This document shows, one piece after another, positions 5,488 through 26,402 of a DNA stretch of 64,000 bases. Source of the stretch: an uncultured delta proteobacterium (GTDB lineage: Bacteria; Desulfobacterota; Binatia; UBA9968); NCBI GenBank assembly GCA_963727625.1, contig CAVSHR010000006.1, positions 205,547-269,546 on the forward strand, read 5' to 3'. Position numbers and translations under genes: made by a program. Under the pieces are notes generated by a model. It was not told where the DNA came from. It made no database searches and saw nothing but the letters and a program-made list of their open reading frames with translations. Position 1 is the stretch's first letter; each line of letters begins with the position of its first letter.

Positions 5488-5503
5488 TGGTACAACAGTT
5501 GCG
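5488..5503 (+). promoter_or_regulatory. Sigma-54-type (-24/-12) promoter upstream of the first SBP gene
   Basis: CTGGTACAACAGTTGCG matches TGGCAC-N5-TTGC with correct GG-N10-GC spacing. It lies about 118 nt upstream of ATG 5621. Confidence 0.5.
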
Positions 5504-5620
5504 CTATGACAGCTCCGACCGGGTATGCAGCGCCTAGCGGGCTACCAACGTTACCCAAGATCAATCATTTCGGCTGGTGGATTTTTCCATGCAGTCCTGC
5601 CGGAAGGCTACGCAAATTTT

Positions 5621-6592
5621 ATGATGAACAAAGTTATTTTAGGCACGGCTCTATTGTTGTTCAGTCTCACCTGTAGCGCCGCTGGACAGCCGGCGAAACC
5701 CTATCGGATCGGGGTTCTTCTTCCCGGCGGCCCTCAGTACGAAACCCTCGACGGACTGCGCCAGGGCTTGAAAGAGCTAGGGCTCCGGGAAGGCAACCAG
5801 TACACTCTGGAGATCAGAGATGTCGAAGGAGATGCAACCGTCGCTCATGAAGGGGCCAGGGTCATGGAAAGAGCCAAAGTCAGTCTTATCTATGCGCTGA
5901 CGACACCAGTCATTACGCAAGCCAAGGCGGCGACAGGTCACACTCCGATTGTCTTTTCGATCGGCAGCGATCCCGTCACCGGCGGGCTGGTCGAGAGTTT
6001 CGCCAAGCCAGGCGGCCGGCTCACCGGAGTCCATTATCTCGTCCGCGATCTCACCGCCAAGCGCCTCGAAGTTTTGAAGGAGATCCTTCCCAAGATCGAC
6101 CGAGTTCTTACCTATTACGATCCCGCCAATCGGGTTGCCGCCGAGGGCGCGACCCTGGCGCGCAACGAGGCGAAACGAATCGGCATCAAGCTCATCGAAC
6201 GGCACGTTAGCTCCGTCGGCGAGCTGAAAAGCGAATTGCACAAGCTTAAGACCGGCGAAGCCGACGCCTTTTTCTTCACCGCGGACCTAATGGTGGGCAG
6301 TCAATCACAACTCATTATCGATAGCACCAAAGCAAAAAAGCTCCCGGCGATGTTTCAGGAGCGAACGCTAGTGGCCCAAGGCGCGCTCGCGAGCTACGGC
6401 CAGAACTACCGAGAGATCGGCCGGCTCTCGGCCAGGTACGTCCAGCAAGTTCTCACCGGCACCCAGCCGAAGGATTTGAAAATCGAGACCGTCGACAGCG
6501 TCGAGCTGGCGATCAACTTGCAGACTGCCAGACAGCTCGGCATTACGATCCCGCCGCAAGTCCTGGCGCGCGCGCAGAAGGTGATCAAGTGA
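5621..6592 (+). CDS. PF04392-type (ABC_sub_bind) periplasmic solute-binding protein, paralogue 1 (divergent)
   Basis: Signal peptide MMNKVILGTALLLFSLTCSAAG, then YRIGVL...GLKELGLREGNQ...AKPGGRLTG...LAINLQTARQLGITIPPQVLARAQKVIK. Confidence 0.85.
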   Translation: MMNKVILGTALLLFSLTCSAAGQPAKPYRIGVLLPGGPQYETLDGLRQGLKELGLREGNQYTLEIRDVEGDATVAHEGARVMERAKVSLIYALTTPVITQAKAATGHTPIVFSIGSDPVTGGLVESFAKPGGRLTGVHYLVRDLTAKRLEVLKEILPKIDRVLTYYDPANRVAAEGATLARNEAKRIGIKLIERHVSSVGELKSELHKLKTGEADAFFFTADLMVGSQSQLIIDSTKAKKLPAMFQERTLVAQGALASYGQNYREIGRLSARYVQQVLTGTQPKDLKIETVDSVELAINLQTARQLGITIPPQVLARAQKVIK

Positions 6593-6594
6593 AG

Positions 6595-7597
6595 ATGGGC
6601 AACAGGCAACAGCGATAAAGCGAAATTCGTTGCTCTCGCGCTCTGCGCTACGCTCTTTGCGCTATTGGGATCTGCTGAGGCGCAGCAGCCGAAGAAAGTC
6701 GAACGCATAGGGTATCTGGTATCAGTTCGTGGTGGGCTCGCGTCGACCGAAGACGCGCTGCGAGCCGGTCTGCGCGAGCTAGACTACATCGAAGGACAGA
6801 ATTTTGTCGTCGAGTCGCGATCTGCCGAAGGGAAGGTCGAGCGGTTACCGGGGCTTGCAGAGGATTTGATACGCCTGAAAGTTGACGTCATCGTTGTCAC
6901 AAGCGTGCAGGGCGCTCTGGCTGCCAAAAAGGCTACTCAATCCATCCCCATTGTCTTTGCCGTCGCTCAAGATCCCGCAGGAAGCGGTCTGGTTGCCAGC
7001 CTTGCGCACCCAGGTGGAAATGTTACCGGAGTGACGGACTTCGCCCGAGAGTTAGCCGACAAGCGGCTGGAACTACTCAAGGAGACCGTTCCCAAGATCT
7101 CACGCCTAGCGCTCCTTTTGTGGAAACCGGCCGGACCGGACTATATGGCCGAGAGAAATGATATCGAGATGGCCGCCACAACCTTGCGAATCAAGATTCG
7201 GCCGGTCGAAGTGGGAAGCGCCAACGAGCTGGAGAGCGCCTTCGTGCGCATGGCCCAGGAGGGCGCCGATGCTTTTATGGGGCTGACGGACACGAGATTC
7301 GCCACCAATCGAAAACGGATCATCGAGCTGGTTGTGAAGAACCGTCTGCCGGCAGTGTATCAGGACTGGGTGTTCGTTCAGACCGGCGGTCTGATGTCTT
7401 ACGGGACAAACCGTGTTCAGTGGCGGCGGCGCATAGCGTGGTACGTCGACAAAATCCTTAAAGGCACGAAGCCGGCTGATCTTCCGGTCGAACGACCAAC
7501 GAAATTCGAATTCGTTGTAAATCTCAAAGCCGCCAAGCGGATCGGCCTGTCGATCCCGCCCAACGTGCTGGTGCGAGCGGATAGGGTGATTCAATGA
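6595..7597 (+). CDS. PF04392-type SBP, paralogue 2 (N-terminus needs a 1-nt frame correction)
   Basis: The continuous ORF starts at TTG 6665, after the signal peptide. The same frame upstream reads KAKFVALALCATLFALLGSAEA but has no start codon. ATG 6595 (MGNRQQR) is one frame off, and the switch lies at an A-run near 6615-6620. Family motifs RIGYL, LRELDYIEGQN, AHPGGNVTG and the C-terminal FEFVVNLKAAKRIGLSIPPNVLVRADRVIQ are present. Confidence 0.75.
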
Positions 7598-8598
7598 AAA
7601 CAAGCCATAGCAAAAAAGCCAGCGTCATTGGCCTTACGCTTTTCGCCATGCTCTTTGCGCTTTGCCGTCCAGCCGAGGCGCAGCAAGCGGAGAAAGTCCC
7701 CCGGATTGGATACCTAAGCGGTAGCCCGCCTTCCGCTATCGCGGAACACAACGAGGCCTTCCGCCAAGGTCTGCGCGAGCTTGGATATATGGAGGGTAAA
7801 AATATTGTGATTGAGTGGCGATCTGCAGAGGGAAAACGTGACCGCCTACCGGCGCTTGCTACCGAGCTAGTGCACCTCAAGGTCGACGTCATCGTGACGG
7901 CTGGACCGTTAGTAACCCGTTCTGCCAAACAAGCAACTTCCACAATTCCGATTGTCATGGCGCAGGATCCCGATCCGGTCCGCAACGGGTTCGTTGCCAG
8001 CTTGGCACGGCCGGGCGGTAACATAACTGGACTTTCCAGAATTGCCCCGGAGCTAAGCGGAAAACAAATGGAGCTTTTGAAGGAGATCGTTCCCATGCTA
8101 TCCCGCGTGGCCGTCTTCGGGACTTCAACCAGGCCGGGAAACGCACAAACGTTAAAAGAAGTGGAACTTGCTGCGGAGGGGTTCGGGGTGAAACTTCAAT
8201 ACCTAGACATCCTAAGTCCCAAAGATATTGTGACTGCATTCCGAGCCGCAGTTAAGGAACGGGCCGACGGCGCACTCTGGATCGTAACGGGCTCGATTGG
8301 GAATCCTCACCGAAAAAAGATTGCGGACCTCGCGGTGAGCAGCCGGCTCCCGGTGATATACTTTCAGCGAGTAGATGTGGAAGCCGGGGGGCTTATGTCC
8401 TACGGGGTGAACGTGGTCGACTTGCACCGCCGCGCCGCGGTGTACGTGCACAAGATCCTGAAGGGCGCCAAGCCGGCTGATTTACCCGTTGAGCAGCCCA
8501 CAAGGTTTGAGTTCGTAGTCAATCTCAAGACCGCGAACCAGATCGGCGTGACGATTCCGCAGAACGTGCTGATGCGGGCGGATCGAGTTATTAGGTGA
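7594..8598 (+). CDS. PF04392-type SBP, paralogue 3
   Basis: ATGA overlap with paralogue 2. Signal peptide ending AEAQQAEKVPRIGYL, then ARPGGNITG and the C-terminal FEFVVNLKTANQIGVTIPQNVLMRADRVIR. Confidence 0.9.
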   Translation: MKTSHSKKASVIGLTLFAMLFALCRPAEAQQAEKVPRIGYLSGSPPSAIAEHNEAFRQGLRELGYMEGKNIVIEWRSAEGKRDRLPALATELVHLKVDVIVTAGPLVTRSAKQATSTIPIVMAQDPDPVRNGFVASLARPGGNITGLSRIAPELSGKQMELLKEIVPMLSRVAVFGTSTRPGNAQTLKEVELAAEGFGVKLQYLDILSPKDIVTAFRAAVKERADGALWIVTGSIGNPHRKKIADLAVSSRLPVIYFQRVDVEAGGLMSYGVNVVDLHRRAAVYVHKILKGAKPADLPVEQPTRFEFVVNLKTANQIGVTIPQNVLMRADRVIR

Positions 8599-8998: not shown

Positions 8999-9074
8999 AT
9001 CAAAGGTCTTCCGAAAAACATGGTCATTGTAGCGCAGCTAGACAACAAAGCAACAAAACTGGTTAGTCTATACA

Positions 9075-9209
9075 GGTTTGCCAACCCACAGATCTCCCGT
9101 CGAGCATCCGACCAAGTTCGAATCCGTGATCAATCTTAAAACCGCCCAGCAGATCGGCATGACGATCGCGCCGAACGTCCTGGCGCGGGCGGATCGGGTC
9201 ATAAGATGA
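9075..9209 (+). pseudogene. 3' stump of a PF04392 SBP paralogue (about 45 codons, one frameshift)
   Basis: Reads (QPTDLP)[40 protein letters not shown]. There is no upstream body. Confidence 0.8.
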
Positions 9210-9300: not shown

Positions 9301-10266
9301 ATGAGAAATAGTCTATTGCTTCTATTGGTCATAGTGGCCCTGGCCGTTGTCACCGCGGCTCAGGCGCAACAACCAGGGCGGATGCCGCGGATAGGTTATT
9401 TAAACATCGGGTCCAAAGTCGAGCGGCCATCTGAAGCATTCCTCCAAGGGCTGCGCGATCTCGGCTATGTCGAGGGAAAGAACATCATCATCGAGTACCG
9501 AGGGGATCCCCAAAGAAGGGAAGATCGACTGCCGGAGTTGGCGGCGGATCTGGTCCGTCTCAAAGTAGCCGTTATCGTTGCCCTGAGCCCACCGGCGGCG
9601 CGCGCCGCAAAGAACGCCACTCAGACAATCCCCATCGTCATTAGGACCACGGGAGACCCGGTTCGGGCAGGATTTGTTCAAAGTCTTGCTCGGCCGGGCG
9701 GAAATATCACGGGCGTTACCTCCATCTCATCGGAGTTATATGGCAAGCGGTTGGGGCTGCTCAAAGAGGTGATCCCGGGACTTTCCCGCGTGGGCGTTTT
9801 GCACAATCCGGACCGCAGCAACTTCAAGAAAATGCAGAGTGCGGCCAGGCCGCTAGCGTTGGAGCTTCGATCCTTAGAGGTCCGAACTTCGAATGATTTT
9901 GCCCCTGCGTTCACAACCGCAACCCGAGCCCACGCTCAAGCGCTCATCACCATAAGGACTCCACTTTTGAATAATCACCGAAAACAGATTGCCGAGTTGG
10001 CGATAAAGAGGCGGCTGCCGTCGATTTACGATGAAGTGCAATATGTCGATGTTGGCGGCCTGATGTCTTATGGGACGCACTTGGGTGACCTGCACCGGCG
10101 CGCCGCGGTTTTCGTCGACAAGATCCTCAAAGGAACTAAGCCGGCCGACATCCCAGTGGAGCAGCCAACGAAATTCGAGTTCGTGATCAATCTTAAAACC
10201 GCCAAGCAGATCGGTCTGACGATCCCGCCGAATGTGCTGGCGCGGGCGGACAGAGTAATTAGGTAA
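9301..10266 (+). CDS. PF04392-type SBP, paralogue 4
   Basis: RBS GGGAGGAGAG. Signal peptide, then PRIGYL, LRDLGYVEGKN, ARPGGNITG and [30 protein letters not shown]. Confidence 0.9.
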   Translation: MRNSLLLLLVIVALAVVTAAQAQQPGRMPRIGYLNIGSKVERPSEAFLQGLRDLGYVEGKNIIIEYRGDPQRREDRLPELAADLVRLKVAVIVALSPPAARAAKNATQTIPIVIRTTGDPVRAGFVQSLARPGGNITGVTSISSELYGKRLGLLKEVIPGLSRVGVLHNPDRSNFKKMQSAARPLALELRSLEVRTSNDFAPAFTTATRAHAQALITIRTPLLNNHRKQIAELAIKRRLPSIYDEVQYVDVGGLMSYGTHLGDLHRRAAVFVDKILKGTKPADIPVEQPTKFEFVINLKTAKQIGLTIPPNVLARADRVIR

Positions 10267-10313: not shown

Positions 10314-11288
10314 ATGATCACAAGGTCTCTCACCGTCCTGTTCGCTTGTGCGATTCTGTTGTTTCACGAACCCAGCCAAGCGCAACAGCCGAAGCGAATC
10401 TGGCAGATCGGTTTGTTCCATGTGGGGTTGGACCATGTTCCGCCGTCATTTCCCGCGCTAAGGGAAGCAATCAAAGAACTGGGCTACGAAGAGGGAAAAA
10501 ACAGCCATTTGGACTGGCGCAACCTGCCCGACGATGCGGCGGCCCTTGCTACCGCCCAAGAATTTACCCGCCAACCGGTCGATTTGATCGTGGCCTTTGA
10601 GGACCAGACGATTCGCGCTGCCAAGGCAGCCACCTCTGAAGTGCCAGTTTTATTCCTGCACGCGAATGCTCCTGTGAAGGATGGGTTTGTGAAAAGTTTT
10701 GCCCACCCTGGCGGTAATATGACCGGCTTCGTCACATGGCCCGTGTCCTATGGCAAGCGTGTCGAATTGTTCAAAGAGTTGATTCCTGATCTCCGCAGTC
10801 TGCTCCTGATCGCTCATCCGGACGATCCCGTCGGGCATCGCTGGCTGCAAGAAATGCGCAGCGCCGGCGCCGCGCTGAAGCTTCGTTTGATCGAGCGCGA
10901 AGTCAGCAATCAAGCGGAAATCGAACGGGTGATGCGGTCCGTAAGGCGAGATGAAGTCGGCGGAGTCTTGGTAGCGTCTCTGATTCTCCGCAACAGTTAC
11001 AGTTCGCTGATCGTCGATATTGCCTCGGAGCGGCGTCTACCCTTGGGGATGCATCGCAAAGAATGGGTCGAGCGGGGCGCGTTGTTTTCCTATGCGGCGG
11101 ACCTCGCCTCCGTCGGCCGGGCCGCCGCCCCCTATGTCGACAGGATTCTCAAAGGTACCAAGCCGGCGGATCTGCCGGTCGATCAGGTATCGCGATTCGA
11201 GCTGGTGATCAATCTGAAATCAGCCCAGAAACTTGGCCTGACGATTCCCCAATCGGTTCTGTTTCGCGCAACCAAGGTGATCAAATGA
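10314..11288 (+). CDS. PF04392-type SBP, paralogue 5 (divergent)
   Basis: AAAGGAGG lies 6 nt upstream of ATG 10314. Signal peptide ends SQAQQPKR, then AHPGGNMTG and FELVINLKSAQKLGLTIPQSVLFRATKVIK. Confidence 0.85.
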   Translation: MITRSLTVLFACAILLFHEPSQAQQPKRIWQIGLFHVGLDHVPPSFPALREAIKELGYEEGKNSHLDWRNLPDDAAALATAQEFTRQPVDLIVAFEDQTIRAAKAATSEVPVLFLHANAPVKDGFVKSFAHPGGNMTGFVTWPVSYGKRVELFKELIPDLRSLLLIAHPDDPVGHRWLQEMRSAGAALKLRLIEREVSNQAEIERVMRSVRRDEVGGVLVASLILRNSYSSLIVDIASERRLPLGMHRKEWVERGALFSYAADLASVGRAAAPYVDRILKGTKPADLPVDQVSRFELVINLKSAQKLGLTIPQSVLFRATKVIK

Positions 11289-11997: not shown

Positions 11998-12048
11998 CTC
12001 TCGATTCCTCCGAACGTGCTGGCGCGGGCGGATCGGGTGATCAAATGA
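11998..12048 (+). pseudogene. 3' stump of a PF04392 SBP paralogue (about 16 codons)
   Basis: Reads [19 protein letters not shown] with no upstream SBP body. Confidence 0.7.
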
Positions 12049-12241: not shown

Positions 12242-13225
12242 ATGAAAAGACTTGGTTCACTATCAATCCTGGTTGCAGTGAGTTTGCTTACTGTTGCGAT
12301 TCCGGCCGAGGCGCAGCAGGCAGTTCAACCGGCGCGTATCTGTTGGCTTTCCGCCGGTGGGGGCGGTGATCATTTGGCTCTCAATGCATTCCGCGACGGC
12401 ATGCGTGACCTAGGGTACGTTGAAGGCCGCAATCTAGTGATCGATGCACGTTGGGGCGATGGATCTAAAAAGCTCCTCGACCAGTACGCGGTCGAGCTAG
12501 TACGCTCAAGCCCCCGGGTGCTCGTGACGCAAGCAGGACAGGCGATCTTTGCCGTACGTCGGACAAAGCCGACGATCCCGATCGTGTTCGGGCTCAGCGG
12601 CGATCCGGTGGAAGCTGGATTAGTCGACAGCTTCGCGCATCCCGGCGGTAATTTTACCGGCGTGTCTTTTCTTTCCCTTGACCTTGTCGGCAAGCGCATG
12701 GTGCTGCTGAAGGAAACCATTGTCTCGCTCAAGCGCGTCGCCGTGCTCGCTAATCCGAGTCATCCAGGCGAGAAAAGCGAGCAGAGCGCAACCCGCGCTG
12801 CGGCAAAAGCGCTCGGTCTCGATTTTGAGTATTTTCCGGCACGGCCAGGACAGGATTACGACCGCGTCCTTCCCGCCGTCGCCAAATCTCGTAGCCAAGC
12901 GTTATTTGTTTTTCCCGATGCTGGAGTAATCGGAAACAGTGAAAAGATCGCCGCCTTCTCAGTGAAGAATCGCATCCCGGCGATGTCCGGTTGGGCCGAA
13001 TTTGCCGAGCGAGGAAATCTTATGACCTACGGTCCAATTTTGAATGAAGGTTACCGGCGGCTGGCAACGTACGTCGATAAAATTCTTAAGAGAGCCAAGC
13101 CGATGGATCTGCCGGTCGAGCTGCCGAAGAAGTTCGAGCTAGTGATCAATCTGAAAACCGCCAAGCAGATCGGCCTGACGATTCCGCCGAACGTGCTGGC
13201 AAGGGCAGACAGGGTCATTCGATGA
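12242..13225 (+). CDS. PF04392-type SBP, paralogue 6
   Basis: Signal peptide ending AEAQQ, then MRDLGYVEGRN, AHPGGNFTG and [30 protein letters not shown]. Confidence 0.9.
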   Translation: MKRLGSLSILVAVSLLTVAIPAEAQQAVQPARICWLSAGGGGDHLALNAFRDGMRDLGYVEGRNLVIDARWGDGSKKLLDQYAVELVRSSPRVLVTQAGQAIFAVRRTKPTIPIVFGLSGDPVEAGLVDSFAHPGGNFTGVSFLSLDLVGKRMVLLKETIVSLKRVAVLANPSHPGEKSEQSATRAAAKALGLDFEYFPARPGQDYDRVLPAVAKSRSQALFVFPDAGVIGNSEKIAAFSVKNRIPAMSGWAEFAERGNLMTYGPILNEGYRRLATYVDKILKRAKPMDLPVELPKKFELVINLKTAKQIGLTIPPNVLARADRVIR

Positions 13226-13251
13226 ATGGTCAGGCGAAAAGCTTGAGTTTC

Positions 13252-13716
13252 TCAGCTCTGAAGAAAATCGCACAGGACCAGTATTTCGATGGCGTTAACT
13301 TTCTTCACGCGCTTATCGTTGGTCAAAAACAGAGTGGCCTCCTGTTGAATGGCCGCAGCGATTTGCAGGGCATCGGGCAGCCGGAGCGTGTAGCGCGCCC
13401 GAATGAGCGCCGCGGCTTCAGCCAGTTTCTCGTCGATTGTTACGACGGAGAGCGAAGCGAAAGACTTCAGGCTGAATTTGATTTCATCGGCCAGAGAAAA
13501 GTTCTTATCGGCAAACGGTTTTGCGAGGATCTCGGCCAGTGTCACGGCCGAGGTGACGGCACGCAGAGCATGATTCTCCAAAAGACTAAATACCGGATCG
13601 AGAAGATCGGCATACGGAGTAACTTCCTCGATATAATAAATGAAGGGCGCGGTATCGAGACCAACGACCTTGTGCTTTTCGATGACCCGTCGCAGTCTAT
13701 GCGCGTTGCCATTCAT
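13252..13716 (-). CDS. vapC: PIN-domain toxin VapC
   Basis: 154 aa with PIN acidic residues in context (VVGLDTAPFIY, TLAEIL, LPDALQIAAA, FLTNDKR). It overlaps the upstream antitoxin gene by 20 nt. Confidence 0.85.
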   Translation of the reverse strand: MNGNAHRLRRVIEKHKVVGLDTAPFIYYIEEVTPYADLLDPVFSLLENHALRAVTSAVTLAEILAKPFADKNFSLADEIKFSLKSFASLSVVTIDEKLAEAAALIRARYTLRLPDALQIAAAIQQEATLFLTNDKRVKKVNAIEILVLCDFLQS

Positions 13717-14009: not shown

Positions 14010-14078
14010 ACCGCGAAACAAATCGGCCTGACGATCCCGCCGAATGTGTTGGCGCGGGCGGACCGGGTCATCAGATGA
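14010..14078 (+). pseudogene. 3' stump of a PF04392 SBP paralogue (22 codons)
   Basis: Reads [25 protein letters not shown] with no upstream body. Confidence 0.8.
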
Positions 14079-15797: not shown

Positions 15798-15902
15798 CAG
15801 CCGACCAAATTCGAGCGGGTAATTAATATCAAGGCCGCCAAGCAGATCGGTCTGACGATCCCGCCGAATGTGCTGGCGCGGGCGGACAAAGTGATTCGAT
15901 AG
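15798..15902 (+). pseudogene. 3' stump of a PF04392 SBP paralogue (34 codons)
   Basis: Reads [37 protein letters not shown] and begins 5 nt after the Prx stop. Confidence 0.8.
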
Positions 15903-18066: not shown

Positions 18067-20492
18067 ATACACCGCCCATGAGCCACTGGACCGCAAAGCT
18101 TCGGCAAATGCCTTTCTTAAGAATCTTTGGAGCGCCGCGCCGAGGGCGGTTAGTGCGCGACTACTTTCTGATCTCGGTCATCTTAATTGGCGGCGGGCTG
18201 ATCACCAGCGGCCTCGTCGAAATCTATTTTCGCTATCACGAAAGCCGCGATCAGTTGGGCCGCTTGCAGAAAGAGATCGCCGCCGGCGCCGCCTTCAAGA
18301 TCGAGAGCTTCGTTCAGGAGATTCACAATACCCTCAAGGGCGCGACTAAAAGCCGCGACATCGCGCCCAAGGGACTCACTCCGGACTTTCGCTTCGAGCT
18401 CGAAAAACTTTTGCTGATCGCGCCGGCAGTGACCGAAGCCGTAGCGCTCAATGAGAAAGGCCGGATCCAAGTCCAGGCGTCGCGCCTGCGCACCGTGCTG
18501 CCCGACGCCAGAAAGGATCTTTCCGGCTCGGAACCGTTCAAACAAGCGCGCGAGGGAAAGTCCTATTTCGGCCGGGTCTACTTCGTGCGCGGCTCCGAGC
18601 CCTATATGACGATCGCGGTCCCGATCGAGCGCTTCGCCGGCGACGTCATCGGCGTGCTGCAAGCGGAAGTCAACCTTAAATACATCGGCGATGTCGTTTC
18701 GAGTATCACCATCGGCAAAGCGGGTTATGCCTACGCTGTGAGCCGATCCGGCGAACTGATCGCCCACCCCGACATCAGTTTGGTCTTGCAACGCCGCAAC
18801 GTGCGCCAATTGGCTGCCGTCAAAGCCGCCTTCGAGAGCCAGCCCGGAGTGGCGCCACTAGACGCACTCGTCACAAAAAATATTCAGGGAAAGGAAGTGC
18901 TGAGTTCGTTTGCGATCATTCCCGATTTCGGCTGGGCGGTGATCGTCGACCGGCCCTTGGCCGAGGCCTACGAAGCGCTCTATGCCTCGATGCTGCGCAC
19001 CGCCGCTCTGTTCCTGATCGGTCTCAGCATGGCGCTATTCGCCAGTTATTTTCTCGCCCGCCGCGTCGTGCAACCGGTGCGGATACTGCGCGAAGGCGTG
19101 GAGCGCATCGGTACCGGCGATCTCGGCTATCGGTTGAATCTCAAGACCGGCGACGAAATAGAAGTGCTCGCCGATGAATTCAACAAAATGACTTCCCAGC
19201 TCGAGGAATCTTACGCCAACTTGGAGCAGAAGGTCGAAGACCGCACGAGGGAGCTGACGGAGTCGCTGGAGCAGCAGACGGCGACCAGCGAAGTCCTGCG
19301 CGTCATCGCGGGATCGCCGAAAGATGTCCAACCGGTGCTTGACGTCGTGGCGGAGCGGGCAGCAAAGCTCTGCGACGCCGAGGACGCGATCATCTTTCGC
19401 GCCTTTGGCGATTACCATCAGAGAGTCGCCAAGTTTGGCTCGATTCCAGCCCCGGATTTTCCGGTGTCGATCACGCGCGGTTTTCCCGGCGGCCGAGCCA
19501 TTCTCGACCGGAAGACCGTTCACATCCATGATATCGAGGAGGTGCTCGAGACCGAATATACGGACGTCCGGTCGATTCAAAAAGAGATCGGGCAGCGCAC
19601 CGTGCTCGCCACGCCACTCTTGCGCGAGGGCGTCGCGATCGGCGCCATCGTCATTCGCCGCCTGCAAGTACGGCCGTTTACCGACAAGCAGATTGCGCTG
19701 CTCAAAACCTTCGCCGATCAGGCCGTGATCGCCATCGAAAACGTCCGTCTGTTCCAGGAGATTCAGGAGAAGAACGAACAGCTCGAGGCTGCCAGCCGAC
19801 ACAAATCTCAATTTCTCGCCAACGTCAGCCACGAGCTGCGCACGCCGCTCAATTCGATCATCGGCTTTACAAGAATAGTTTTGCGCCGCACGGAGGGCAA
19901 GATCGAAAGCCTGCAAAAAGAAAATCTGAAAAAAGTTTTGATCAGCGCAGATCATTTGCTGAGCCTGATCAACGAGCTGCTCGACCTGGCAAAGATCGAG
20001 GCGGGGCGGATGGAAGCCTACGCGGAAACGTTTAAAGTCGACGAGATCATCCGCATGGCCATGTCCACGGTCGAACCGATGCTTAGGAACGGCCGGGTAA
20101 ATCTGGTCACGGACATCGCTCCGGACATTCCGCCGCTGAAAACCGATCGAGACAAGCTCAAACAGTCCGTCCTCAATCTTCTCAGCAACGCCGTCAAGTT
20201 CACCGAGAGCGGCGAGATCAAGGTCACAGCGTGGCGAGACAATGGTTCTTTGAAGCTCACCGTATCCGATACCGGCATAGGCATGAACCCGGAAGCGCTC
20301 CGATACATCTTCGACGAGTTCCGCCAGGCTGACATGTCGAGCACGCGCAAATACGGCGGCACGGGCCTTGGCTTGGCCATTGTGAAAAAGTTCATCAATC
20401 TTATGGGCGGCGATATCGTCGTCGCAAGCGAAGAAGGCAAAGGATCGACGTTCACGATCACGATGCCGCTGGAACTGAAAATTCAAGGGTAA
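18063..20492 (+). CDS. Sensor histidine kinase (2 TM + periplasmic Cache-like region, HAMP, GAF, HisKA, HATPase_c)
   Basis: 809 aa. TM1 is FLISVILIGGGLITSGLVEIYF, followed by about 270 aa of periplasmic sequence and TM2. Then HAMP (GTGDLGYRLNLKTGDEIEVLADEFNKM), GAF (TATSEVLRVIAGSPKDVQPVLD...), H-box SHELRTPLNSIIGF, and N/G boxes (LLSNAVKFT, DTGIGM, GGTGLGLAIV). An alternative start is ATG 18078. Confidence 0.9.
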   Translation: MNTPPMSHWTAKLRQMPFLRIFGAPRRGRLVRDYFLISVILIGGGLITSGLVEIYFRYHESRDQLGRLQKEIAAGAAFKIESFVQEIHNTLKGATKSRDIAPKGLTPDFRFELEKLLLIAPAVTEAVALNEKGRIQVQASRLRTVLPDARKDLSGSEPFKQAREGKSYFGRVYFVRGSEPYMTIAVPIERFAGDVIGVLQAEVNLKYIGDVVSSITIGKAGYAYAVSRSGELIAHPDISLVLQRRNVRQLAAVKAAFESQPGVAPLDALVTKNIQGKEVLSSFAIIPDFGWAVIVDRPLAEAYEALYASMLRTAALFLIGLSMALFASYFLARRVVQPVRILREGVERIGTGDLGYRLNLKTGDEIEVLADEFNKMTSQLEESYANLEQKVEDRTRELTESLEQQTATSEVLRVIAGSPKDVQPVLDVVAERAAKLCDAEDAIIFRAFGDYHQRVAKFGSIPAPDFPVSITRGFPGGRAILDRKTVHIHDIEEVLETEYTDVRSIQKEIGQRTVLATPLLREGVAIGAIVIRRLQVRPFTDKQIALLKTFADQAVIAIENVRLFQEIQEKNEQLEAASRHKSQFLANVSHELRTPLNSIIGFTRIVLRRTEGKIESLQKENLKKVLISADHLLSLINELLDLAKIEAGRMEAYAETFKVDEIIRMAMSTVEPMLRNGRVNLVTDIAPDIPPLKTDRDKLKQSVLNLLSNAVKFTESGEIKVTAWRDNGSLKLTVSDTGIGMNPEALRYIFDEFRQADMSSTRKYGGTGLGLAIVKKFINLMGGDIVVASEEGKGSTFTITMPLELKIQG

Positions 20493-20650: not shown

Positions 20651-21625
20651 ATGCGACAGTGGTTCATCTTCTTCGTACTGCTCGCCGTTAGCGTTTCACG
20701 AACTTGCGATGTGATTGCAGCCGAGCGCGCCCTGCCGGTCAGGATCGGCGTGCTTACGGAGGGATTTGGGCCGACCACCGGTGCAGTAGGCCTGCGGGAT
20801 GGGCTTAAGGGACTTGGTTACCGGGAGGATAAAGATTTCGTGATCGGCGTCCGATTTACTCAGGGCGATGCCTTGGCGCTTCCCGAGGCGGTTAGGAAAC
20901 TTATCCGGCAAGGAGTGGATATTCTGATCACAGAGGGACGGAGCGCAGCAAAGGCAGCTCAACTGGAAACCAAAGTATTGCCGATCGTCTTTGCCGGAGG
21001 TGGCGATCCGGTCGGGTTCGGTCTGATTCGGAGCTTTGCCCGTCCTGGAACTAATATTACGGGTGTAAGCGATCTCGATATTGAGTTGGGCCCCAAGCGC
21101 CTTGAGATTTTTAAGGAGATGATCCCCGAGCTAAATCGTGTGTTATTCCCCTACGATGCGACCGATGCCTACAGCGTTTCCGAGGCGAAGGCGTATCGCG
21201 ATGCCGCGCGTCGGCTCAGAATCGCGCTGATTGAGAAAGAGCTGCGCACTGAGGATGAGGCAAAATCGGTCCTGGGCAAGTTAAGAAAAGGCGACATCCA
21301 CGGCATCCTGTCACCACGTCCGATGACAGCGAATATTCCTGGATACGTCCGCGAGGCGGGTTCCCGGTCTTCCATACCGACGATGTTTGCCGCGACTTTT
21401 TTTGCGGAGAATGGTGGCCTCGCAAGTTACACTCCCAATTCCTACGAATCCGGCCGAATGGCGGCGCGGCTGGTGGACAAGATTCTAAAAGGCGAGAGTC
21501 CCGGTAAAATCCCCGTGGAGGTGAACAACAAGATCGAACTGGTTATCAACCTGAAGGTTGCGAAGGCATTGGGGATCAAGATCGCCCCGCAGGCGTTGTA
21601 TAAGGCAAACCGAGTCATCCGATGA
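20651..21625 (+). CDS. PF04392-type SBP, paralogue 10 (divergent)
   Basis: Signal peptide MRQWFIFFVLLAVSVS, then VRIGVL, LKGLGYREDKD, ARPGTNITG and IELVINLKVAKALGIKIAPQALYKANRVIR. Confidence 0.85.
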   Translation: MRQWFIFFVLLAVSVSRTCDVIAAERALPVRIGVLTEGFGPTTGAVGLRDGLKGLGYREDKDFVIGVRFTQGDALALPEAVRKLIRQGVDILITEGRSAAKAAQLETKVLPIVFAGGGDPVGFGLIRSFARPGTNITGVSDLDIELGPKRLEIFKEMIPELNRVLFPYDATDAYSVSEAKAYRDAARRLRIALIEKELRTEDEAKSVLGKLRKGDIHGILSPRPMTANIPGYVREAGSRSSIPTMFAATFFAENGGLASYTPNSYESGRMAARLVDKILKGESPGKIPVEVNNKIELVINLKVAKALGIKIAPQALYKANRVIR

Positions 21626-21691
21626 CTCACTGACATAGCGCAGAATGAAAATTGCAAAATGCAGACTGCCAAGCAGAGAGGAGACCAAGAG

Positions 21692-22932: not shown

Positions 22933-23298
22933 ATGGAAATGAAAAAAATTCTCGTGGTCGATGACACGGATTGGAACCGCGACCTGCTGGTTCAGCTTCT
23001 GGAGGAAGACTACGAGATACTTCAGGCCGTTGACGGTGCCGAAGGCGTGAGAATAACGGAGCAGAGCAAGCCCGATCTGATCCTCATGGATCTCGGCATG
23101 CCGGTCATGGATGGATGGGAAGCGAGCCGGAGAATCAAAGCCGACCCCGGGCTCAAGCATATTCCGATTATCGCGGTTACGTCCCACGCCATGGTCGGCG
23201 ACGAGATCGAGGCCCGCAAGGCCGGCTGCGACGATTACCTGCCCAAGCCGATCGATGAAGATTTGCTGCTGCAAAAGATCAAAAAATTTCTCGAATAA
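22933..23298 (+). CDS. Stand-alone CheY-like response-regulator receiver
   Basis: 121 aa with ILVVDD, DLILMDLGMPVMDG, and KAGCDDYLPKPI. Confidence 0.9.
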   Translation: MEMKKILVVDDTDWNRDLLVQLLEEDYEILQAVDGAEGVRITEQSKPDLILMDLGMPVMDGWEASRRIKADPGLKHIPIIAVTSHAMVGDEIEARKAGCDDYLPKPIDEDLLLQKIKKFLE

Positions 23299-23341: not shown

Positions 23342-24424
23342 ATGTTAAACAAGATCCTCATCGTCGACGATGAGCCGTTTAATCTCGACCTCCTCGAGCA
23401 AGAGCTGGGCGACTACGACTACGTGATTGAAAGAGCGACTGATGGCACCGAGGCGCTGGAGAAAACCGCTAGTTTCGAGCCCGATGTCATATTGCTCGAT
23501 TACATGATGCCGCGCATGAACGGGCTCGAAGTCGTCAAACGGCTGCGCGAAAACCCGCAGCATAAGGGCATCCCGGTTATTCTGCTCACGGCCAAGGCAA
23601 CGCAGGAAGACAAAGTGCGCGGCCTCGACGCCGGCGCCGATGACTACGTGACCAAACCTTTCGACTCGATCGAGCTATTGGCGCGGGTGCGCGCCATGTT
23701 GCGGCTCAAGGAAATGCACGACCAACTTGAAGAATGGAACCGAACCCTCGCCGAAAAGGTGCAGGAACAGGTGCACGAGATCGAACGCATGGCCCGCCTC
23801 AAGCGCTATCTCTCGCCGCAAATCGCCGAGACCATCCTTGGCTCGGACGACTCGCTGTTCAAGACCCACCGGCGTGAAATTACCATCGTGTTTCTCGATC
23901 TCAGGGGATTTACCGCCTTCTCCGACAGCGCCGAGCCCGAAGAGGTCATGGAATTTTTGCGCCATTACCACGCCGAGATGGGCCAGTTAGTCTTCAAGTT
24001 CGAGGGCACATTGGAACGTTTCGTGGGCGACGGGATTGTGATAATTTTCAATGATCCGATTCCCTGCGAAAATTACGCCGAGAAGGCGGCGCGAATGGCG
24101 CTGGAGATGCGCGACCGGGTGAAGGAGCTGCGTGCCGCCTGGCGCAAAAAGGGATATGACCTGGATTTGGGCGTCGGCCTGGCGTGCGGTTACGCAACCC
24201 TGGGGACCATGGGCTTCGAAGGACGCATGGACTACGGCACGGTGGGTAATCTGCCGAATCTGGCGGCGCGCCTATGCGCCGAGGCCAAAGGCGGACAGAT
24301 CCTTACCGACCAGAAAACCATGAGTCGATTGGAAGACGGGTTTGCAGCGGAATCGATCCAGGAGCTAAATCTCAAAGGCATCAACCGCCCGGTTACGGCT
24401 TTCAATATCACGGGCGCCAAATAG
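23342..24424 (+). CDS. Response-regulator receiver fused to a class III adenylate/guanylate cyclase (CHD) domain
   Basis: Receiver (ILIVDDE...LLDYMMPRMNG...DAGADDYVTKPF), a coiled linker, then a CHD domain (ITIVFLDLRGFTAFS...ERFVGDGIVIIFNDP...GTVGNLPNLAARL). Confidence 0.9.
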   Translation: MLNKILIVDDEPFNLDLLEQELGDYDYVIERATDGTEALEKTASFEPDVILLDYMMPRMNGLEVVKRLRENPQHKGIPVILLTAKATQEDKVRGLDAGADDYVTKPFDSIELLARVRAMLRLKEMHDQLEEWNRTLAEKVQEQVHEIERMARLKRYLSPQIAETILGSDDSLFKTHRREITIVFLDLRGFTAFSDSAEPEEVMEFLRHYHAEMGQLVFKFEGTLERFVGDGIVIIFNDPIPCENYAEKAARMALEMRDRVKELRAAWRKKGYDLDLGVGLACGYATLGTMGFEGRMDYGTVGNLPNLAARLCAEAKGGQILTDQKTMSRLEDGFAAESIQELNLKGINRPVTAFNITGAK

Positions 24425-24433
24425 CAGGCAGCG

Positions 24434-25366
24434 ATGCGCGGAAAACTTCAACGCGAAGCGAAAAACAAGCGGCCCTTTCGGGTAAAATTCTGGGGCGTGC
24501 GGGGAAGCTATCCGACGGTCGATCCCGATACACTCGCGGTCGGCGGAAACACTTCCTGCGTCGAAGTCGAAGTCGACGGCCGCCGCTTGATCTTCGATGC
24601 CGGCACCGGGATCATCCCGCTCGGCAAAGAGCTGTGCGACGGCGCGGTCGCGCCGCCGACGGCTTATATTTTTTTGAGCCACACCCATATCGATCATGTC
24701 ATGGGACTGTGTTTTTTCGAGCCGCTGCTGACCCCGAAGGCGCATTCTTTCATACTCGGTCCCGGCAATACCCGCGGCGCTCTGACGCGCAGTTTGCGGC
24801 ACTTGACTCACAGCCATCTGTTTCCGGTTTCGCTCGACGAGCTTAAAGGAAAGAAAGAAATCTTTTCCCTCGCCGGCGGCGAATCGATTCGCTTCGGCAC
24901 GACCGCGCGTCGACCGAAAATCGAGTCGGCGAAATCAGCGACTGTCGCCAACGGCGACGAGCTCGTCATCACCACCTGCAAAAGTCCGGCGCATCCACTC
25001 AACGGCGTCATGCTGTATCGGGTTCACTACCGCAACAAGAGTTTCGTCTACGCCACCGATATTGAACAGAAGGAGGGCGGCTATCGAGAGATCATCGAGT
25101 TCGTCCGCGGCACAGACCTGCTGGTTCACGATGCCCAATATCTTTCTGAAGAATATTCGGGACGCGCTAAACCGCGCAAAGGCTGGGGCCACAGCACCAT
25201 CGAAATGGCTGCCGAGGTTGCCCGAAAGGCCAAGGTCAAACGGCTCTTGCTGTTCCACCACGAGCCAACCCACGACGACAAGACCATGAAGAAGATCGAA
25301 AAGCAGACAAAACTGCTCTTTCGCTCGACCGAGGTCGCCCATGAAGGTATGGAAATCACTCTTTAG
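24434..25366 (+). CDS. MBL-fold metallo-hydrolase
   Basis: 310 aa with the HxHxDH motif (FLSHTHIDHVMG) and later HDAQY / GHST metal-ligand-type motifs. Substrate unknown. Confidence 0.8.
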   Translation: MRGKLQREAKNKRPFRVKFWGVRGSYPTVDPDTLAVGGNTSCVEVEVDGRRLIFDAGTGIIPLGKELCDGAVAPPTAYIFLSHTHIDHVMGLCFFEPLLTPKAHSFILGPGNTRGALTRSLRHLTHSHLFPVSLDELKGKKEIFSLAGGESIRFGTTARRPKIESAKSATVANGDELVITTCKSPAHPLNGVMLYRVHYRNKSFVYATDIEQKEGGYREIIEFVRGTDLLVHDAQYLSEEYSGRAKPRKGWGHSTIEMAAEVARKAKVKRLLLFHHEPTHDDKTMKKIEKQTKLLFRSTEVAHEGMEITL

Positions 25367-26402
25367 TCGAACTACAACCGCACCCGATCCGCACAATCAA
25401 TCGTCCGCTACGGGCCCCAGCCGCCGCCTAGACGGGCGTCTGCTCGCCACATCGTTCATGGCACTGTTTCTTCTGCAGCCGCTGTGCACCTTCGCCCAGG
25501 CGCCGGCCCGCGTGGGGATTTTAGTTCGGGAACTGGGCCGTGCTCAGTTCCAGGCGATCAAGGGCCTGACGGAGGAACTCAAACGGCTGGGCTATATAAA
25601 CCGGGAAAATCTCGTTTTGGAAACTCGTAACGTCAAGGGCAGCCGGGCCGCGTTGCAACCCGCGGCCGCCGAGTTAATCGGCCAAAAGGTCGATCTGATT
25701 TTCACCACGGGGACCAGCGCCACCCGCGCGGCCGTGACCGCGACCCGGGAGATTCCAGTTGTGTTTGTTCACCCAGGCGACCCGGTTGCTTCCGGCTTGT
25801 TCAAAAGCGCCGAACTGCGGTCGGCAAACTTGACGGGCGTCGCGGCTTACGCCGGTGAAACCACCGAAAAGAGATTGGCGCTTTTCAATGAAATCTTTCC
25901 TGGGCTCCGAAAGGTCGTGGTCTTCTTTGATGGTAACAATGCCTCTTCGCGCGATAAGTACAAGATGGTCGAAAACTTAGCAAAAAAATCTCATCTCGAA
26001 GCGGCCGCCTTTGCGGTTAAATCCGCCGACGAGTTGCGTACCACCATCGCTAACTTGCACCCTGGAAACGGAATGGGCGTGTTTCAAGTGGCCGATGAGT
26101 TGGTTGAGAGCGAAGCGGAGTTTCTTTTTCAAAACGCTCGGGTGAAGAAAATCGCTACGATGTTCAACGAAGAATCGTGGGCGATTAACGGAGCGCTTGC
26201 CGCTTATGGGCCCAATTACTTTGAAATGGGTCGTCAAGCGGGCGGCCTCGCCGCGAAGATTATCAAAGGGAAGCGCCCGTCCTCCTTGCCGATCGAGCAC
26301 GCAACCCAATTCGATCTGACGCTCAATTATCGCACCAGTCGATTTATCGGCGTGCCGCTTCCCAGGAAGCTGATTAAAAAAGCAAACAAAGTCATTCGCT
26401 AG
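25341..26402 (+). CDS. PF04392-type SBP, paralogue 11 (most divergent)
   Basis: Hydrophobic leader FMALFLLQPLCTFAQAPARVGILV, then LKRLGYINRENL and a C-terminus FDLTLNYRTSRFIGVPLPRKLIKKANKVIR. The start is uncertain, since the ORF overlaps the MBL gene by 26 nt. Confidence 0.75.
   Translation: MKVWKSLFSRTTTAPDPHNQSSATGPSRRLDGRLLATSFMALFLLQPLCTFAQAPARVGILVRELGRAQFQAIKGLTEELKRLGYINRENLVLETRNVKGSRAALQPAAAELIGQKVDLIFTTGTSATRAAVTATREIPVVFVHPGDPVASGLFKSAELRSANLTGVAAYAGETTEKRLALFNEIFPGLRKVVVFFDGNNASSRDKYKMVENLAKKSHLEAAAFAVKSADELRTTIANLHPGNGMGVFQVADELVESEAEFLFQNARVKKIATMFNEESWAINGALAAYGPNYFEMGRQAGGLAAKIIKGKRPSSLPIEHATQFDLTLNYRTSRFIGVPLPRKLIKKANKVIR

Follow-up and report, generated by a model that had tools for sequence, protein, structure and literature searches.

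An orphan array of PF04392 solute-binding-protein genes beside a dCache histidine kinase in Candidatus Binatia points to a possible multi-ligand sensing battery

Results

Gene content of the PF04392 array

We analyzed a 64-kb stretch of DNA, termed the window, from a soil bacterium belonging to Binatia (Candidatus Binatia), a class without cultured members. Eleven PF04392 genes (S1 to S11), all on the + strand, span positions 5621-26402, together with remains of further genes and one inserted gene:

5621..6592, + strand: S1, PF04392 binding protein whose subfamily is single-copy and has 1:1 orthologues in 17 loci
6595..7597, + strand: S2, PF04392 binding protein with a 1-nt frameshift right after ATG 6595; open frame 6665-7597
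7594..8598, + strand: S3, PF04392 binding protein of an expanding clade, 67% identical to S9
9042..9206, + strand: 3' relic of a lost PF04392 gene, ending in a stop
9301..10266, + strand: S4, PF04392 binding protein
10314..11288, + strand: S5, PF04392 binding protein of a rare subfamily
11998..12048, + strand: short 3' relic ending in a stop, repeat family D7
12242..13225, + strand: S6, PF04392 binding protein
13252..13716, - (opposite) strand: PIN-domain (VapC-like toxin) gene inserted in the array
14010..14078, + strand: 3' relic ending in a stop
14159..15139, + strand: S7, PF04392 binding protein
15798..15902, + strand: 3' relic ending in a stop, repeat families D15 and D16
15943..16992, + strand: S8, PF04392 binding protein
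17086..18066, + strand: S9, PF04392 binding protein nearest the kinase
20651..21625, + strand: S10, PF04392 binding protein of a distinct rare subfamily
25341..26402, + strand: S11, most divergent PF04392 paralogue, single-copy subfamily

Ahead of the relic at 15798..15902 lies a peroxiredoxin relic (15523-15701). Toxin-antitoxin insertions comparable to that of the PIN-domain gene were seen in the arrays of loci L079, L080, and L082.

The Pfam model PF04392 (ABC_sub_bind) matched all 11 open reading frames from end to end (E-values 1e-38 to 1e-52), with 130-179 bits against a gathering cut-off of 25.9 bits, which bears out the family assignment of the first-pass annotation. That annotation also took all 11 genes to be intact. 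Ten of them do start at an in-frame ATG (5621, 7594, 9301, 10314, 12242, 14159, 15943, 17086, 20651, and 25341), whereas the ATG of S2 at 6595 is shifted by 1 nt relative to the reading frame of the gene body and meets a stop after seven codons. The body frame of S2 encodes a good signal peptide and has TTG 6665 as its first start codon, and when the GGG run at 6597-6599 is read as GG, MATGNSDKAKFVALALCATLFALLGSAEA directly followed by QQP is restored. The array therefore consists of ten intact genes and one frameshifted gene, and this homopolymer frameshift either stems from a sequencing error or is a lesion of very recent date. By inspection, ten of the proteins were found to have an export signal, i.e., a hydrophobic N-terminus ending in AxA, with QQ or EQ as the next residues in S2-S9; the signal of S2 is present only after correction of the 1-nt frameshift.

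Pairs of paralogues were 26-67% identical in protein and just 60-86% identical in DNA. The conserved C-terminus had been described as differing at synonymous sites, and identical codons were indeed found at only 9-20 of the 21-32 sites encoding the same amino acid. The dN/dS ratio was 0.17-0.33, with dS from 0.8 to >3. Because of this low DNA identity, the differing C-terminal codons, and the dN/dS values, the array members are old paralogues under purifying selection and not assembly repeats, in agreement with the initial reading. Four 3'-end relics of extra PF04392 genes were found in the long spacers, and the array must therefore formerly have had at least 15 genes. Gene losses leave 3' relics beside inserted toxin-antitoxin genes. 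The array turns over by birth and death, that is, by tandem duplication, divergence of the cleft, and loss.

Fold and variation of the binding proteins

The AlphaFold2 model, made for S9 only, had a pLDDT of 87.5 and the two-lobed alpha/beta fold of a class I (cluster B) binding protein. Its best Foldseek matches were 3LKV, 3LFT, and 6HNI (E-values 1e-23 to 1e-25; TM-score 0.75-0.80 on the query and 0.82-0.87 on the target). The specificity residues of CD0873 (PMC6816091) map to paralogue columns at the 72nd-100th percentile of entropy, and the loops following strand C-termini had a mean entropy of 2.46 bits compared to 1.78-1.81 elsewhere (p = 3.5e-6). Variation among the paralogues clusters around the ligand cleft. 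The first-pass annotation had named variability outside the pocket as an outcome that would speak against sensing, and since the variability lies at the cleft this outcome did not arise. The scaffold motifs that it listed are present, but they are family-wide and occur also in the ABC-linked homologues 3LKV and 3LFT. The C-terminal third, where the paralogues are best conserved, is likewise conserved in ABC-linked family members.

The proteins share membership of PF04392, the fold, the DP-loop, a PGxNxTG motif, and a C-terminal motif with the ABC binding proteins for aromatic amino acids TrpX, CD0873, VC_1101, and SP1069 (PDB 6HNI, 3LKV, 3LFT). They differ from this group in having no adjacent permease or ATPase genes and in not keeping the DNxxAS motif of the three solved aromatic-amino-acid binders. 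The TrpX equivalog model NF041285 gave 132-154 bits, below its cut-off of 390 bits, and the positions of E263 and Y279 as well as DNxxAS were hypervariable among the paralogues. Because neither this motif nor the pair of specificity residues is kept, the ligands are probably different from those of the aromatic-amino-acid binders.

Absence of ABC transporter partners

None of the domains ABC_tran, BPD_transp, and BPD_transp_2 was found in any sizeable open reading frame of the 64-kb window, and a six-frame search of the window gave no LSGGQ signature. The sole Walker-A-like match was in a 64-residue open frame overlapping a PpiD-like gene in another frame. Domain and motif searches thus agree with the earlier statement that the window lacks a permease and an ATPase. 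Across 987 kb of related loci (about 60 genomes with several hundred PF04392 open reading frames and fragments) no cognate ABC ATPase was found, only three non-cognate ABC ATPases, and no ABC parts were called in five further genomic contexts. The gene order of a canonical ABC importer, with binding protein, BPD_transp_2 permease, and ABC ATPase in one operon, was absent from the window and from the loci compared.

A conserved sigma-54 signalling cluster

The other features of the cluster are:

5488..5503, + strand: sigma-54 type -24/-12 promoter element TGGTACAACAGTTGCG, 118 nt upstream of S1
18078..20492, + strand: sensor histidine kinase with TM, periplasmic dCache_1, TM, HAMP, GAF, HisKA, and HATPase_c
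22933..23298, + strand: stand-alone receiver (REC)
23342..24424, + strand: receiver fused to a class III adenylate/guanylate cyclase
24434..25366, + strand: MBL-fold hydrolase (Lactamase_B_2) with a weak match to cyclic-nucleotide phosphodiesterase
26406..29066, + strand: fusion of a cNMP-binding domain, a TPR/MalT-like region, and a DASS (Na_sulph_symp) transporter
29074..30417, + strand: NtrC-type response regulator with REC, sigma-54 AAA+ domain, and HTH_8

The neighbours of the array are signalling genes, as first described, and comprise a dCache-HAMP-GAF histidine kinase, three receiver proteins (one of them fused to the cyclase), and a sigma-54 activator. The dCache_1 domain of the kinase covers residues 61-295 and is flanked by two TM segments. 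The kinase ATG at 18078 lies 11 nt past the stop of S9, while an alternative GTG at 18063 overlaps S9. All binding-protein genes upstream of the kinase are co-oriented with it and located behind the conserved sigma-54 promoter.

We searched 1.05 Mb of the window and related loci for the sigma-54 motif TGG[CT][AG][CT]-N5-TTGCG and found 26 matches on the + strand compared to nine on the - strand. Eighteen of the 26 were placed directly 5' of the first binding-protein or kinase gene of the operon. The element thus has a conserved position at the operon head (18 loci), often right 3' of the NtrC gene. A regulator with REC, sigma-54 AAA+, and HTH_8 domains and a -24/-12 promoter at its putative target together have the make-up of an NtrC-type system. 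The region is one conserved signalling cluster, in which the promoter at 5488 heads the co-oriented genes for secreted PF04392 proteins up to the kinase.

The cluster is kept in about 60 Candidatus Binatia genomes. Its first part consists of the sigma-54 promoter, 0-15 binding-protein genes, the dCache-HAMP-GAF histidine kinase, and a receiver; then follow more binding-protein genes, the receiver-cyclase, the MBL hydrolase, a binding protein, the cNMP-binding DASS transporter, and the NtrC-type regulator. The 11 genes are not one uniform battery, as S11 belongs to a separate module of MBL hydrolase, binding protein, and DASS transporter.

A PF04392 reading frame ending at most 400 nt upstream of the kinase was found in 37 of the 56 evaluable loci, and upstream copies occurred in about 46 of the 56. 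The kinase orthologues of L033, L052, and L056 had no upstream binding-protein gene, which counts against a role in sensing. More distant kinase homologues had exactly one binding-protein gene directly 5' (L058, L060, L062, L065, L067, and L075); L065 is from Spirochaetota, and the kinase of L075 is 28% identical. Plasmids of Rhizobium, among them pRL11 of strain 3841, have a dCache-HAMP-cyclase gene that is preceded, at a distance of 8-40 nt, by a PF04392 gene, with no ABC genes near the pair. The TM-dCache-TM-HAMP module of this cyclase is 32-37% identical to that of the kinase over about 360 residues. The pRL11 pair RL_RS30325/RL_RS30330 resembles the Binatia arrangement in having the PF04392 gene directly 5' of a homologous module, and differs in its adenylate/guanylate cyclase output, its single binding-protein gene, and its alphaproteobacterial host; no functional study of it was found in the literature searched. 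The pairing of PF04392 with a dCache-HAMP module is thus seen again in distant lineages, and also in combination with another output domain.

Array size varied: L018 and L044 have 14-16 copies, and L079 and L080 have 17-19. Members of the same subfamily were also found where the neighbourhood showed no kinase or had none called within 10 kb, both as arrays (at least 19 genes in L080 and about ten in L082) and as pairs (L081, and L078, which lies inside an aromatic-catabolism cluster). At least 8000 PF04392 homologues were found, of which the best 120 were 69-79% identical.

Discussion

Binding proteins as input to the kinase

The explanation that we find best, and to which we give about an even chance, is that cleft-diversified binding proteins feed the dCache kinase within one sigma-54 signalling cluster. 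Binding proteins often dock on dCache-like domains, and the partner gene usually adjoins the receptor gene (PMC8050422, PMC11113362). The systems LuxP-LuxQ, HptA-HptS, ChvE-VirA, and CBP-ChiS likewise have a class I or II binding-protein gene directly 5' of, and co-oriented with, the kinase gene. The likeness to the LuxPQ type extends to a transmembrane kinase with a bimodular Cache-type periplasmic domain, to adjacent co-oriented genes kept across taxa, and to dCache_1 being a domain type known to dock binding proteins. LuxPQ-type signalling needs no transporter (PMC8050422). The Binatia system differs in that PF04392 is absent from the 13 listed receptor-partner families (PMC8050422), in having up to 9-15 paralogues instead of one ahead of a single kinase, and in a kinase that is non-hybrid, GAF-bearing, and paired with a sigma-54 regulator and a receiver-cyclase; the interaction here is a predicted one.

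By analogy with LuxP-LuxQ, docking of ligand-loaded binding proteins on the dCache domain would be the likeliest route of input. The binding proteins would pick up different small solutes in the periplasm and, once loaded, dock on the dCache domain of the kinase as in LuxP/LuxQ, HptA/HptS, and ChvE/VirA; docking of many binding proteins would therefore, we propose, let one kinase respond to a wider range of ligands. The kinase would phosphorylate the NtrC-type regulator, which would act back on the sigma-54 promoter, and this positive autoregulation would set the levels of binding proteins and kinase. The receiver-cyclase may be a further target of phosphorylation, with its cNMP acting on the DASS transporter through the fused cNMP-binding domain and the MBL hydrolase possibly breaking cNMP down. 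S11, which travels with the MBL and DASS genes, would stand outside the kinase input.

The first-pass annotation proposed sensors feeding signalling rather than transport. This is favoured by the lack of an ABC partner in the loci, the adjacency to a dCache kinase, the recurring pairing, and the variability of the cleft, but it does not extend to S11 with its separate module and is weakened by arrays of 10-19 genes without a kinase in view and by kinases without an upstream gene. The dCache domain alone could bind ligands. Co-transcription with the kinase from the sigma-54 promoter fits equally well with the binding proteins being regulated outputs.

Alternative roles

The last point is central to a different explanation, which we regard as possible though rather unlikely. 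Here the PF04392 proteins would be high-affinity scavengers that all serve a common transporter, or a small number of them, whose genes lie elsewhere; the simplest candidate is a BPD_transp_2 permease plus an ABC ATPase. The binding proteins would then be outputs of expression and not inputs; the adjacency to the kinase would reflect only two-component/sigma-54 control of expression. Such NtrC/sigma-54 control of binding proteins for uptake is classical. This explanation stays serious because there are kinase-free arrays with as many as 19 genes. Arrays of 10-19 genes had none within the roughly 20 kb examined, pairs lie inside catabolic clusters, and the family is hugely expanded in the lineage (at least 8000 homologues). 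The best NCBIfam match of the paralogues is TrpX, and the C-terminal third common to ABC-linked homologues could be a permease-docking or a structural surface. All characterised family members (TrpX, CD0873) serve ABC importers (PMC6816091).

The model for such an expansion is Bug/TctC (TTT, PF03401) of Bordetella, Cupriavidus, and Rhodoplanes, also a lineage-specific expansion of one binding-protein family. It too has tandem arrays (at most nine in Rhodoplanes) with mostly <50% identity between members, many orphans with far fewer membrane partners than binding proteins, and genes often near kinases or regulators (PMC5994714). Whether Bug/TctC proteins act in transport or sensing is debated (PMC5994714). 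The Binatia proteins are class I PF04392 and not PF03401 members, which makes this an analogy only, and they further differ in fold class, in the phylum of their host, in longer arrays (11 here and up to 19 in L080), and in the fixed place of the array in a conserved sigma-54 two-component operon. Uptake through a shared transporter has to contend with the lack of a cognate permease or ATPase in the window, the 987 kb, and the five further contexts. It also leaves unexplained why a PF04392 gene stays with the same dCache-HAMP module across phyla and outputs, including the two-gene unit of Rhizobium, which has no transporter.

It is very unlikely that S11, and perhaps others, deliver substrate to the cNMP-gated DASS protein as part of a new binding-protein-dependent secondary transporter analogous to TRAP and TTT. 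In 12 of 14 loci an S11-type gene was flanked by the MBL and DASS genes, at distances of 3-120 nt or with a slight overlap. The trio shifts as a unit relative to the kinase, and ABC parts are absent. DASS, TRAP-DctM, and TTT-TctA also belong to the ion-transporter superfamily. DASS transporters are, however, known to work independently of binding proteins, and in two of the 14 loci, L017 and L047, the DASS fusion is present but S11 is missing. The membrane protein encoded beside S11 is the DASS fusion, whereas TRAP and TTT systems have subunits of the DctQM or TctAB type in this place. S11 has diverged further than any other paralogue, S1-S10 show no link to the transporter, and the adjacency was found only within Binatia.

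A last reading, of negligible probability, takes the array for an artefact of assembly or for duplicates that no longer function and have no current role. One frameshifted gene, four genes cut down to 3' relics, interrupting toxin-antitoxin genes, and many split copies on related long-read contigs might suggest this reading, but it is largely refuted by ten intact genes with signal peptides, the dN/dS of 0.17-0.33, copies only 60-86% identical in DNA, and orthologous arrays in dozens of independent assemblies.

Wider meaning

The input reading can be carried further to a periplasmic "chemical nose", a speculative proposal that we think improbable as a whole. Here 9-15 diversified PF04392 proteins would compete or combine on the dCache domain of one kinase and so channel many solutes into one sigma-54 and cNMP output, PF04392 and dCache-HAMP would be a co-receptor pair that spans phyla and includes the Rhizobium cyclases, and a cNMP-gated DASS symporter would work with S11. 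If true, PF04392 with dCache-HAMP would be a previously unrecognised phylum-spanning co-receptor pair, and DASS with S11 would represent a new class of binding-protein-assisted, second-messenger-gated secondary transporter.

Sequence, Age, and Integrity of the Binding-Protein Genes

Pfam family PF04392 (ABC_sub_bind) was matched end to end by eleven plus-strand ORFs between 5.5 and 26.4 kb, with E-values from 1e-38 to 1e-52. This bears out the first-pass annotation of eleven PF04392-type genes, here numbered S1 to S11 from 5' to 3'. The further claim that all eleven are intact held for ten, which start with an in-frame ATG and a hydrophobic signal sequence ending in AxA. In S2 to S9 the AxA is followed by QQ or EQ. 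The exception is S2, where the ATG at 6595 lies 1 nt off the reading frame of the gene body and meets a stop after seven codons. In the frame of the S2 body a good signal peptide is encoded, but the first start codon there is the TTG at 6665, and loss of one base from the GGG run at 6597-6599 gives MATGNSDKAKFVALALCATLFALLGSAEA followed by QQP, a perfect signal peptide. The lesion is a homopolymer indel. It may be a sequencing error, since the peroxiredoxin (AhpC/TSA) gene following S10 (21659-22249) is likewise broken into three frames, or else a very recent frameshift. Lipoprotein anchoring of the binding proteins was ruled out, as no lipobox was found by inspection.

The paralogues share 26-67% pairwise protein identity and 60-86% DNA identity. 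Even in the conserved C-terminus only 9-20 codons are identical among the 21-32 that specify the same amino acid. Ratios of dN/dS are 0.17-0.33, and dS ranges from 0.8 up to saturation. Judged by this divergence S1 to S11 are old paralogues and not assembly repeats, as first proposed, and the DNA identity together with the synonymous differences rules out recent duplication or gene conversion of the C-termini. The motifs described as a shared scaffold, including the C-terminal one, are family-wide and also occur in the ABC-linked proteins VC_1101 (3LKV) and SP1069 (3LFT).

Several spacers of the array hold relics or inserted genes.

Relics and insertions in the array spacers
8648-8998, minus strand, retropepsin-like aspartyl protease gene, inserted
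9042-9206, plus strand, 3' relic of a PF04392 gene, own stop codon kept
11998-12048, plus strand, 3' relic of a PF04392 gene ending at about 12045, own stop codon kept
13252-13716, minus strand, PIN toxin gene, inserted
14010-14078, plus strand, 3' relic of a PF04392 gene ending at about 14075, own stop codon kept
15798-15902, plus strand, 3' relic of a PF04392 gene ending at about 15899, own stop codon kept

Each of the four relics sits in a long spacer, and 40-200 nt separate it from the intact paralogue that follows; its junction to that gene survives while the 5' part is lost. The array therefore formerly contained at least 15 genes. The spacer between S7 and S8 carries a further opposite-strand insertion, a fragment (15523-15701) of the same peroxiredoxin gene, 73-77% identical to the copy after S10. 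This suggests that a binding-protein gene and a peroxiredoxin gene were duplicated together as a unit at an earlier time. Arrays at three other loci (L079, L080, and L082) are likewise broken by ParE, PemK, PIN-MazE, and HepT-MNT toxin-antitoxin genes. The match of the plus-strand ORF 13222-13812 to locus L032 is due only to its overlap with the PIN gene.

The Ligand Cleft Is the Diversified Part

An AlphaFold2 model of S9 (pLDDT 87.5) was that of a class I binding protein. Its best matches were 3LKV (Phe-bound), 3LFT (Trp-bound), and 6HNI (Tyr-bound), with TM-scores of 0.75-0.80 normalized to the query and 0.82-0.87 to the target. The DNxxAS motif common to the three solved aromatic-amino-acid binders was not conserved in the paralogues, and the four proteins tested against the TrpX equivalog scored 132-154 bits relative to a cut-off of 390. 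In CD0873 side-chain specificity is reported to be set by A262, E263, and Y279, with V235 and P236 (PMC6816091). These residues fall in alignment columns at the 72nd to 100th entropy percentile, and the E263 column reads E, D, Q, E, R, W, Q, R, N, A, E in the eleven proteins.

As a proxy for the cleft we took, on the structure, the five residues past the C-terminus of each strand, which lie on the cleft side of the Rossmann-like lobe. Mean entropy was 2.46 bits in these cleft-side loops compared to 1.78 in the pre-strand loops and 1.81 in the rest (Mann-Whitney p = 3.5e-6). Mapping of the variability, the check proposed with the first-pass annotation, thus placed the diversified part in the ligand cleft. 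The last third of the proteins was the most conserved, and a variable cleft with a conserved last third fits different ligands presented on a common surface.

Neighbouring Genes and Promoter

None of the ORFs in the 64-kb window contained an ABC_tran, BPD_transp, or BPD_transp_2 domain. A six-frame search of the window found no LSGGQ signature and a single Walker-A-like match, attributable to chance. The window hence holds no cognate permease or ATPase, as had been noted, and the signalling genes named as neighbours were all found, including a receiver-cyclase.

Genes accompanying the array
18078-20492, plus strand, dCache_1-HAMP-GAF-HisKA-HATPase histidine kinase (the kinase), beginning 11 nt past the S9 stop codon
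22933-23298, stand-alone receiver
24434-25366, plus strand, MBL-fold hydrolase
26406-29066, plus strand, cNMP-binding domain, TPR-like region, and DASS transporter domain in one fusion protein
29074-30417, plus strand, NtrC-type sigma-54 activator

Elsewhere in the window, a minus-strand ORF (44029-45576) encodes a polytopic membrane protein of 515 residues that matches no Pfam family, and the AT skew around it is unusually high (0.22 over 42-46 kb). Another minus-strand ORF (59522-60421, 299 residues) has a weak NMT1/THI5-like match (E 0.0014, just under the gathering score) and may be another orphan binding protein.

A sigma-54 -24/-12 element, TGGTACAACAGTTGCG, is located at 5488-5503, 118 nt upstream of S1. 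In 1.05 Mb the motif TGG[CT][AG][CT]-N5-TTGCG was found 26 times on the plus strand and 9 times on the minus strand. Of the 26 plus-strand sites, 18 immediately precede the first binding-protein gene or, where none is present, the kinase gene, and most of these 18 are 130-250 nt past an NtrC gene. This placement makes it very likely that array and kinase form one sigma-54 operon controlled by the cluster's own NtrC regulator. A search for internal sigma-54 elements gave only a weak one, TGGTCAGTCCTTTGCT (17059-17074, 8 of 11 positions), 12 nt upstream of the S9 start, which may be an internal promoter or chance. An Rfam scan of the whole window returned nothing at gathering thresholds, so no riboswitch and no T-box of the trpX kind was found there, and generic scans for promoters and terminators gave no signal above background.

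Conservation of the Cluster in Binatia

Orthologues of the kinase with 60-84% identity were found on about 60 metagenome-assembled contigs, whose labels are mostly Candidatus Binatia or "Deltaproteobacteria bacterium" and in a few cases name other phyla. Close homologues of S9 were named Candidatus Binatia. The array phenomenon is lineage-wide. Related loci, searched with the other proteins of the window and an HMM built from the eleven paralogues, share a conserved order: an opposite-strand AI-2E-family transporter gene, in some genomes an NtrC gene, the sigma-54 promoter, 0-15 binding-protein genes, the kinase, a receiver, 0-6 further binding-protein genes, the receiver-cyclase, in some genomes the MBL, S11-type, and cNMP-DASS genes, then NtrC unless it is upstream, followed by TSA, DsbD, FolE, and PepA. 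Locus L044 carries 16 binding-protein copies in 19 kb and L018 carries 14. The AI-2E-family (PerM/YdiK-like) gene, at 4197-5453 on the minus strand of the window, is found in many Binatia loci as a conserved, divergently oriented gene next to the head of the operon; the family name by itself is no evidence for autoinducer-2 involvement.

The 168 clustered full-length sequences fell into five deep subfamilies. S2, S3, S4, S6, S7, S8, and S9 belong to a large clade of 129 sequences with fast turnover, where best and second-best matches are about equal and 1:1 orthology is therefore lacking. S1-type genes are single copy in 17 loci and often kinase-proximal, S11-type genes are single copy in 12 loci, and the S10 and S5 types are rare. 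In 12 (L004, L007, L012, L016, L027, L030, L038, L039, L041, L048, L052, and L057) of the 14 loci having the DASS fusion the S11-type gene lies between the MBL and DASS genes, as it does in the window (24434-29066). These three genes shift as one unit relative to the kinase, and the whole unit is missing from some genomes. S11 belongs to this DASS transporter module. The adjacency was seen within Binatia: a search at E <= 1e-20 gave 535 homologues of the DASS fusion, the best 120 of which show identities of 74% or more and, where a source is named, come nearly always from close Binatia relatives. Together with the receiver-cyclase, the module looks like a self-contained cNMP circuit gating an anion symporter. 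The eleven genes are hence not the one homogeneous battery of ligand sensors first envisaged.

Sensing or Transport

Of the 56 loci that could be evaluated, 37 have a PF04392 ORF that ends no more than 400 nt before the kinase, and about 46 have upstream copies. Exactly one binding-protein gene lies directly upstream of distant kinase homologues in six loci (L058, L060, L062, L065 of Spirochaetota, L067, and L075, the last with a kinase only 28% identical to that of the window), often with an NtrC gene next. In 987 kb of related loci we found only three ABC ATPases: one TOBE-type on the other strand, one from a LIV operon (L075) that is complete and includes a Peripla_BP_6 protein of its own, and one in a locus with no PF04392 gene in view (L069). 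The LIV-type operon of L075, from a distant deltaproteobacterial genome (3818-12856; Peripla_BP_6, two BPD_transp_2, two ABC_tran), is directly followed by the PF04392 gene and a dCache-HAMP-GAF-GAF kinase gene.

Plasmids of Rhizobium leguminosarum and R. johnstonii, among them pRL11 of strain 3841, carry a dCache_1-HAMP-adenylate/guanylate cyclase gene preceded by a PF04392 gene at a distance of 8-40 nt. Ku and LigD genes flank the pair, and no ABC genes were found near it.

Rhizobium gene pairs
L085, 3968-6713, R. johnstonii 3841 pRL11, RL_RS30325 and RL_RS30330
L083, 5911-8710

The TM-dCache-TM-HAMP module of the cyclase is 32-37% identical to that of the kinase over about 360 residues (E 7e-59 and 1e-51), and the sensor module was matched on 46 Rhizobium plasmid records. 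The same sensor module and binding-protein family with a different output domain is what a co-receptor relationship predicts, and we regard this apparent swap of output as the strongest item for sensing.

Binding proteins are well known to dock on dCache-like domains, as for LuxQ, HptS, VirA, ChiS, and MbaA, and the genes of binding protein and receptor are usually neighbours; the 13 partner families listed do not include PF04392 (PMC8050422; PMC11113362).

The pairing and the lack of ABC parts in the window speak for the proposed sensing, but other loci count against it as the exclusive role. S9-type arrays of at least 19 (L080) and about 10 genes (L082) show no kinase, either in view or among the genes called within 10 kb, an S9-type pair adjoins unrelated genes (L081), and two S9-type genes lie inside a putative aromatic-acid catabolic cluster (L078, 1-21098). 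An array of about 17 genes follows a different kinase type, 4HB-HAMP (L079), and kinase orthologues in L033, L052, and L056 lack an upstream binding-protein gene. To our knowledge, all characterised PF04392 members serve ABC importers. The L078 cluster comprises a Rieske oxygenase, CoA ligases, a molybdenum hydroxylase, and UbiD decarboxylases, and also holds orphan binding-protein genes of the TctC and NMT1/phosphonate types; orphan expansion may have affected several binding-protein families in that lineage.

We give an even chance to the best-supported reading, in which the operon is sigma-54-autoregulated and its cleft-diversified, transporter-less PF04392 proteins are ligand-presenting co-receptors for the dCache kinase. 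The kinase output would then pass to the NtrC-type regulator, and to the receiver-cyclase and through it to the cNMP-binding DASS transporter. The main rival, possible but less likely, is a Bug-like orphan expansion whose products serve some shared transporter not seen here; the two-component system would then do no more than regulate expression. The family-wide picture does resemble the Bug/TctC expansions, where transport or sensing is likewise disputed (PMC5994714). Compared to these, the PF04392 arrays present a second, independent case of the orphan binding-protein puzzle. The co-receptor and shared-transporter readings are compatible and both can hold together, since BctC of Bordetella performs both transport and sensing.

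We found no description of the PF04392 expansion or of the pairing in the searchable literature; what is new here is the binding-protein family, the phylum, the unusually long arrays, and the conserved pairing with a dCache module. Binatia are abundant, uncultured bacteria of soil and sediment. Their arrays of 10-19 secreted binding proteins with diversified clefts and no visible transporter represent many unexplored ligand specificities. If many of these proteins feed one kinase, the two-component system would have an unusual, many-to-one input design. The pairing of PF04392 with dCache-HAMP spans Binatia, distant kinase relatives (one labelled Spirochaetota), and Rhizobium, with kinase and cyclase outputs, and would add a new binding-protein family to the receptor co-sensors. 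The two-gene unit of pRL11 offers a cultivable system in which this central hypothesis is directly testable.
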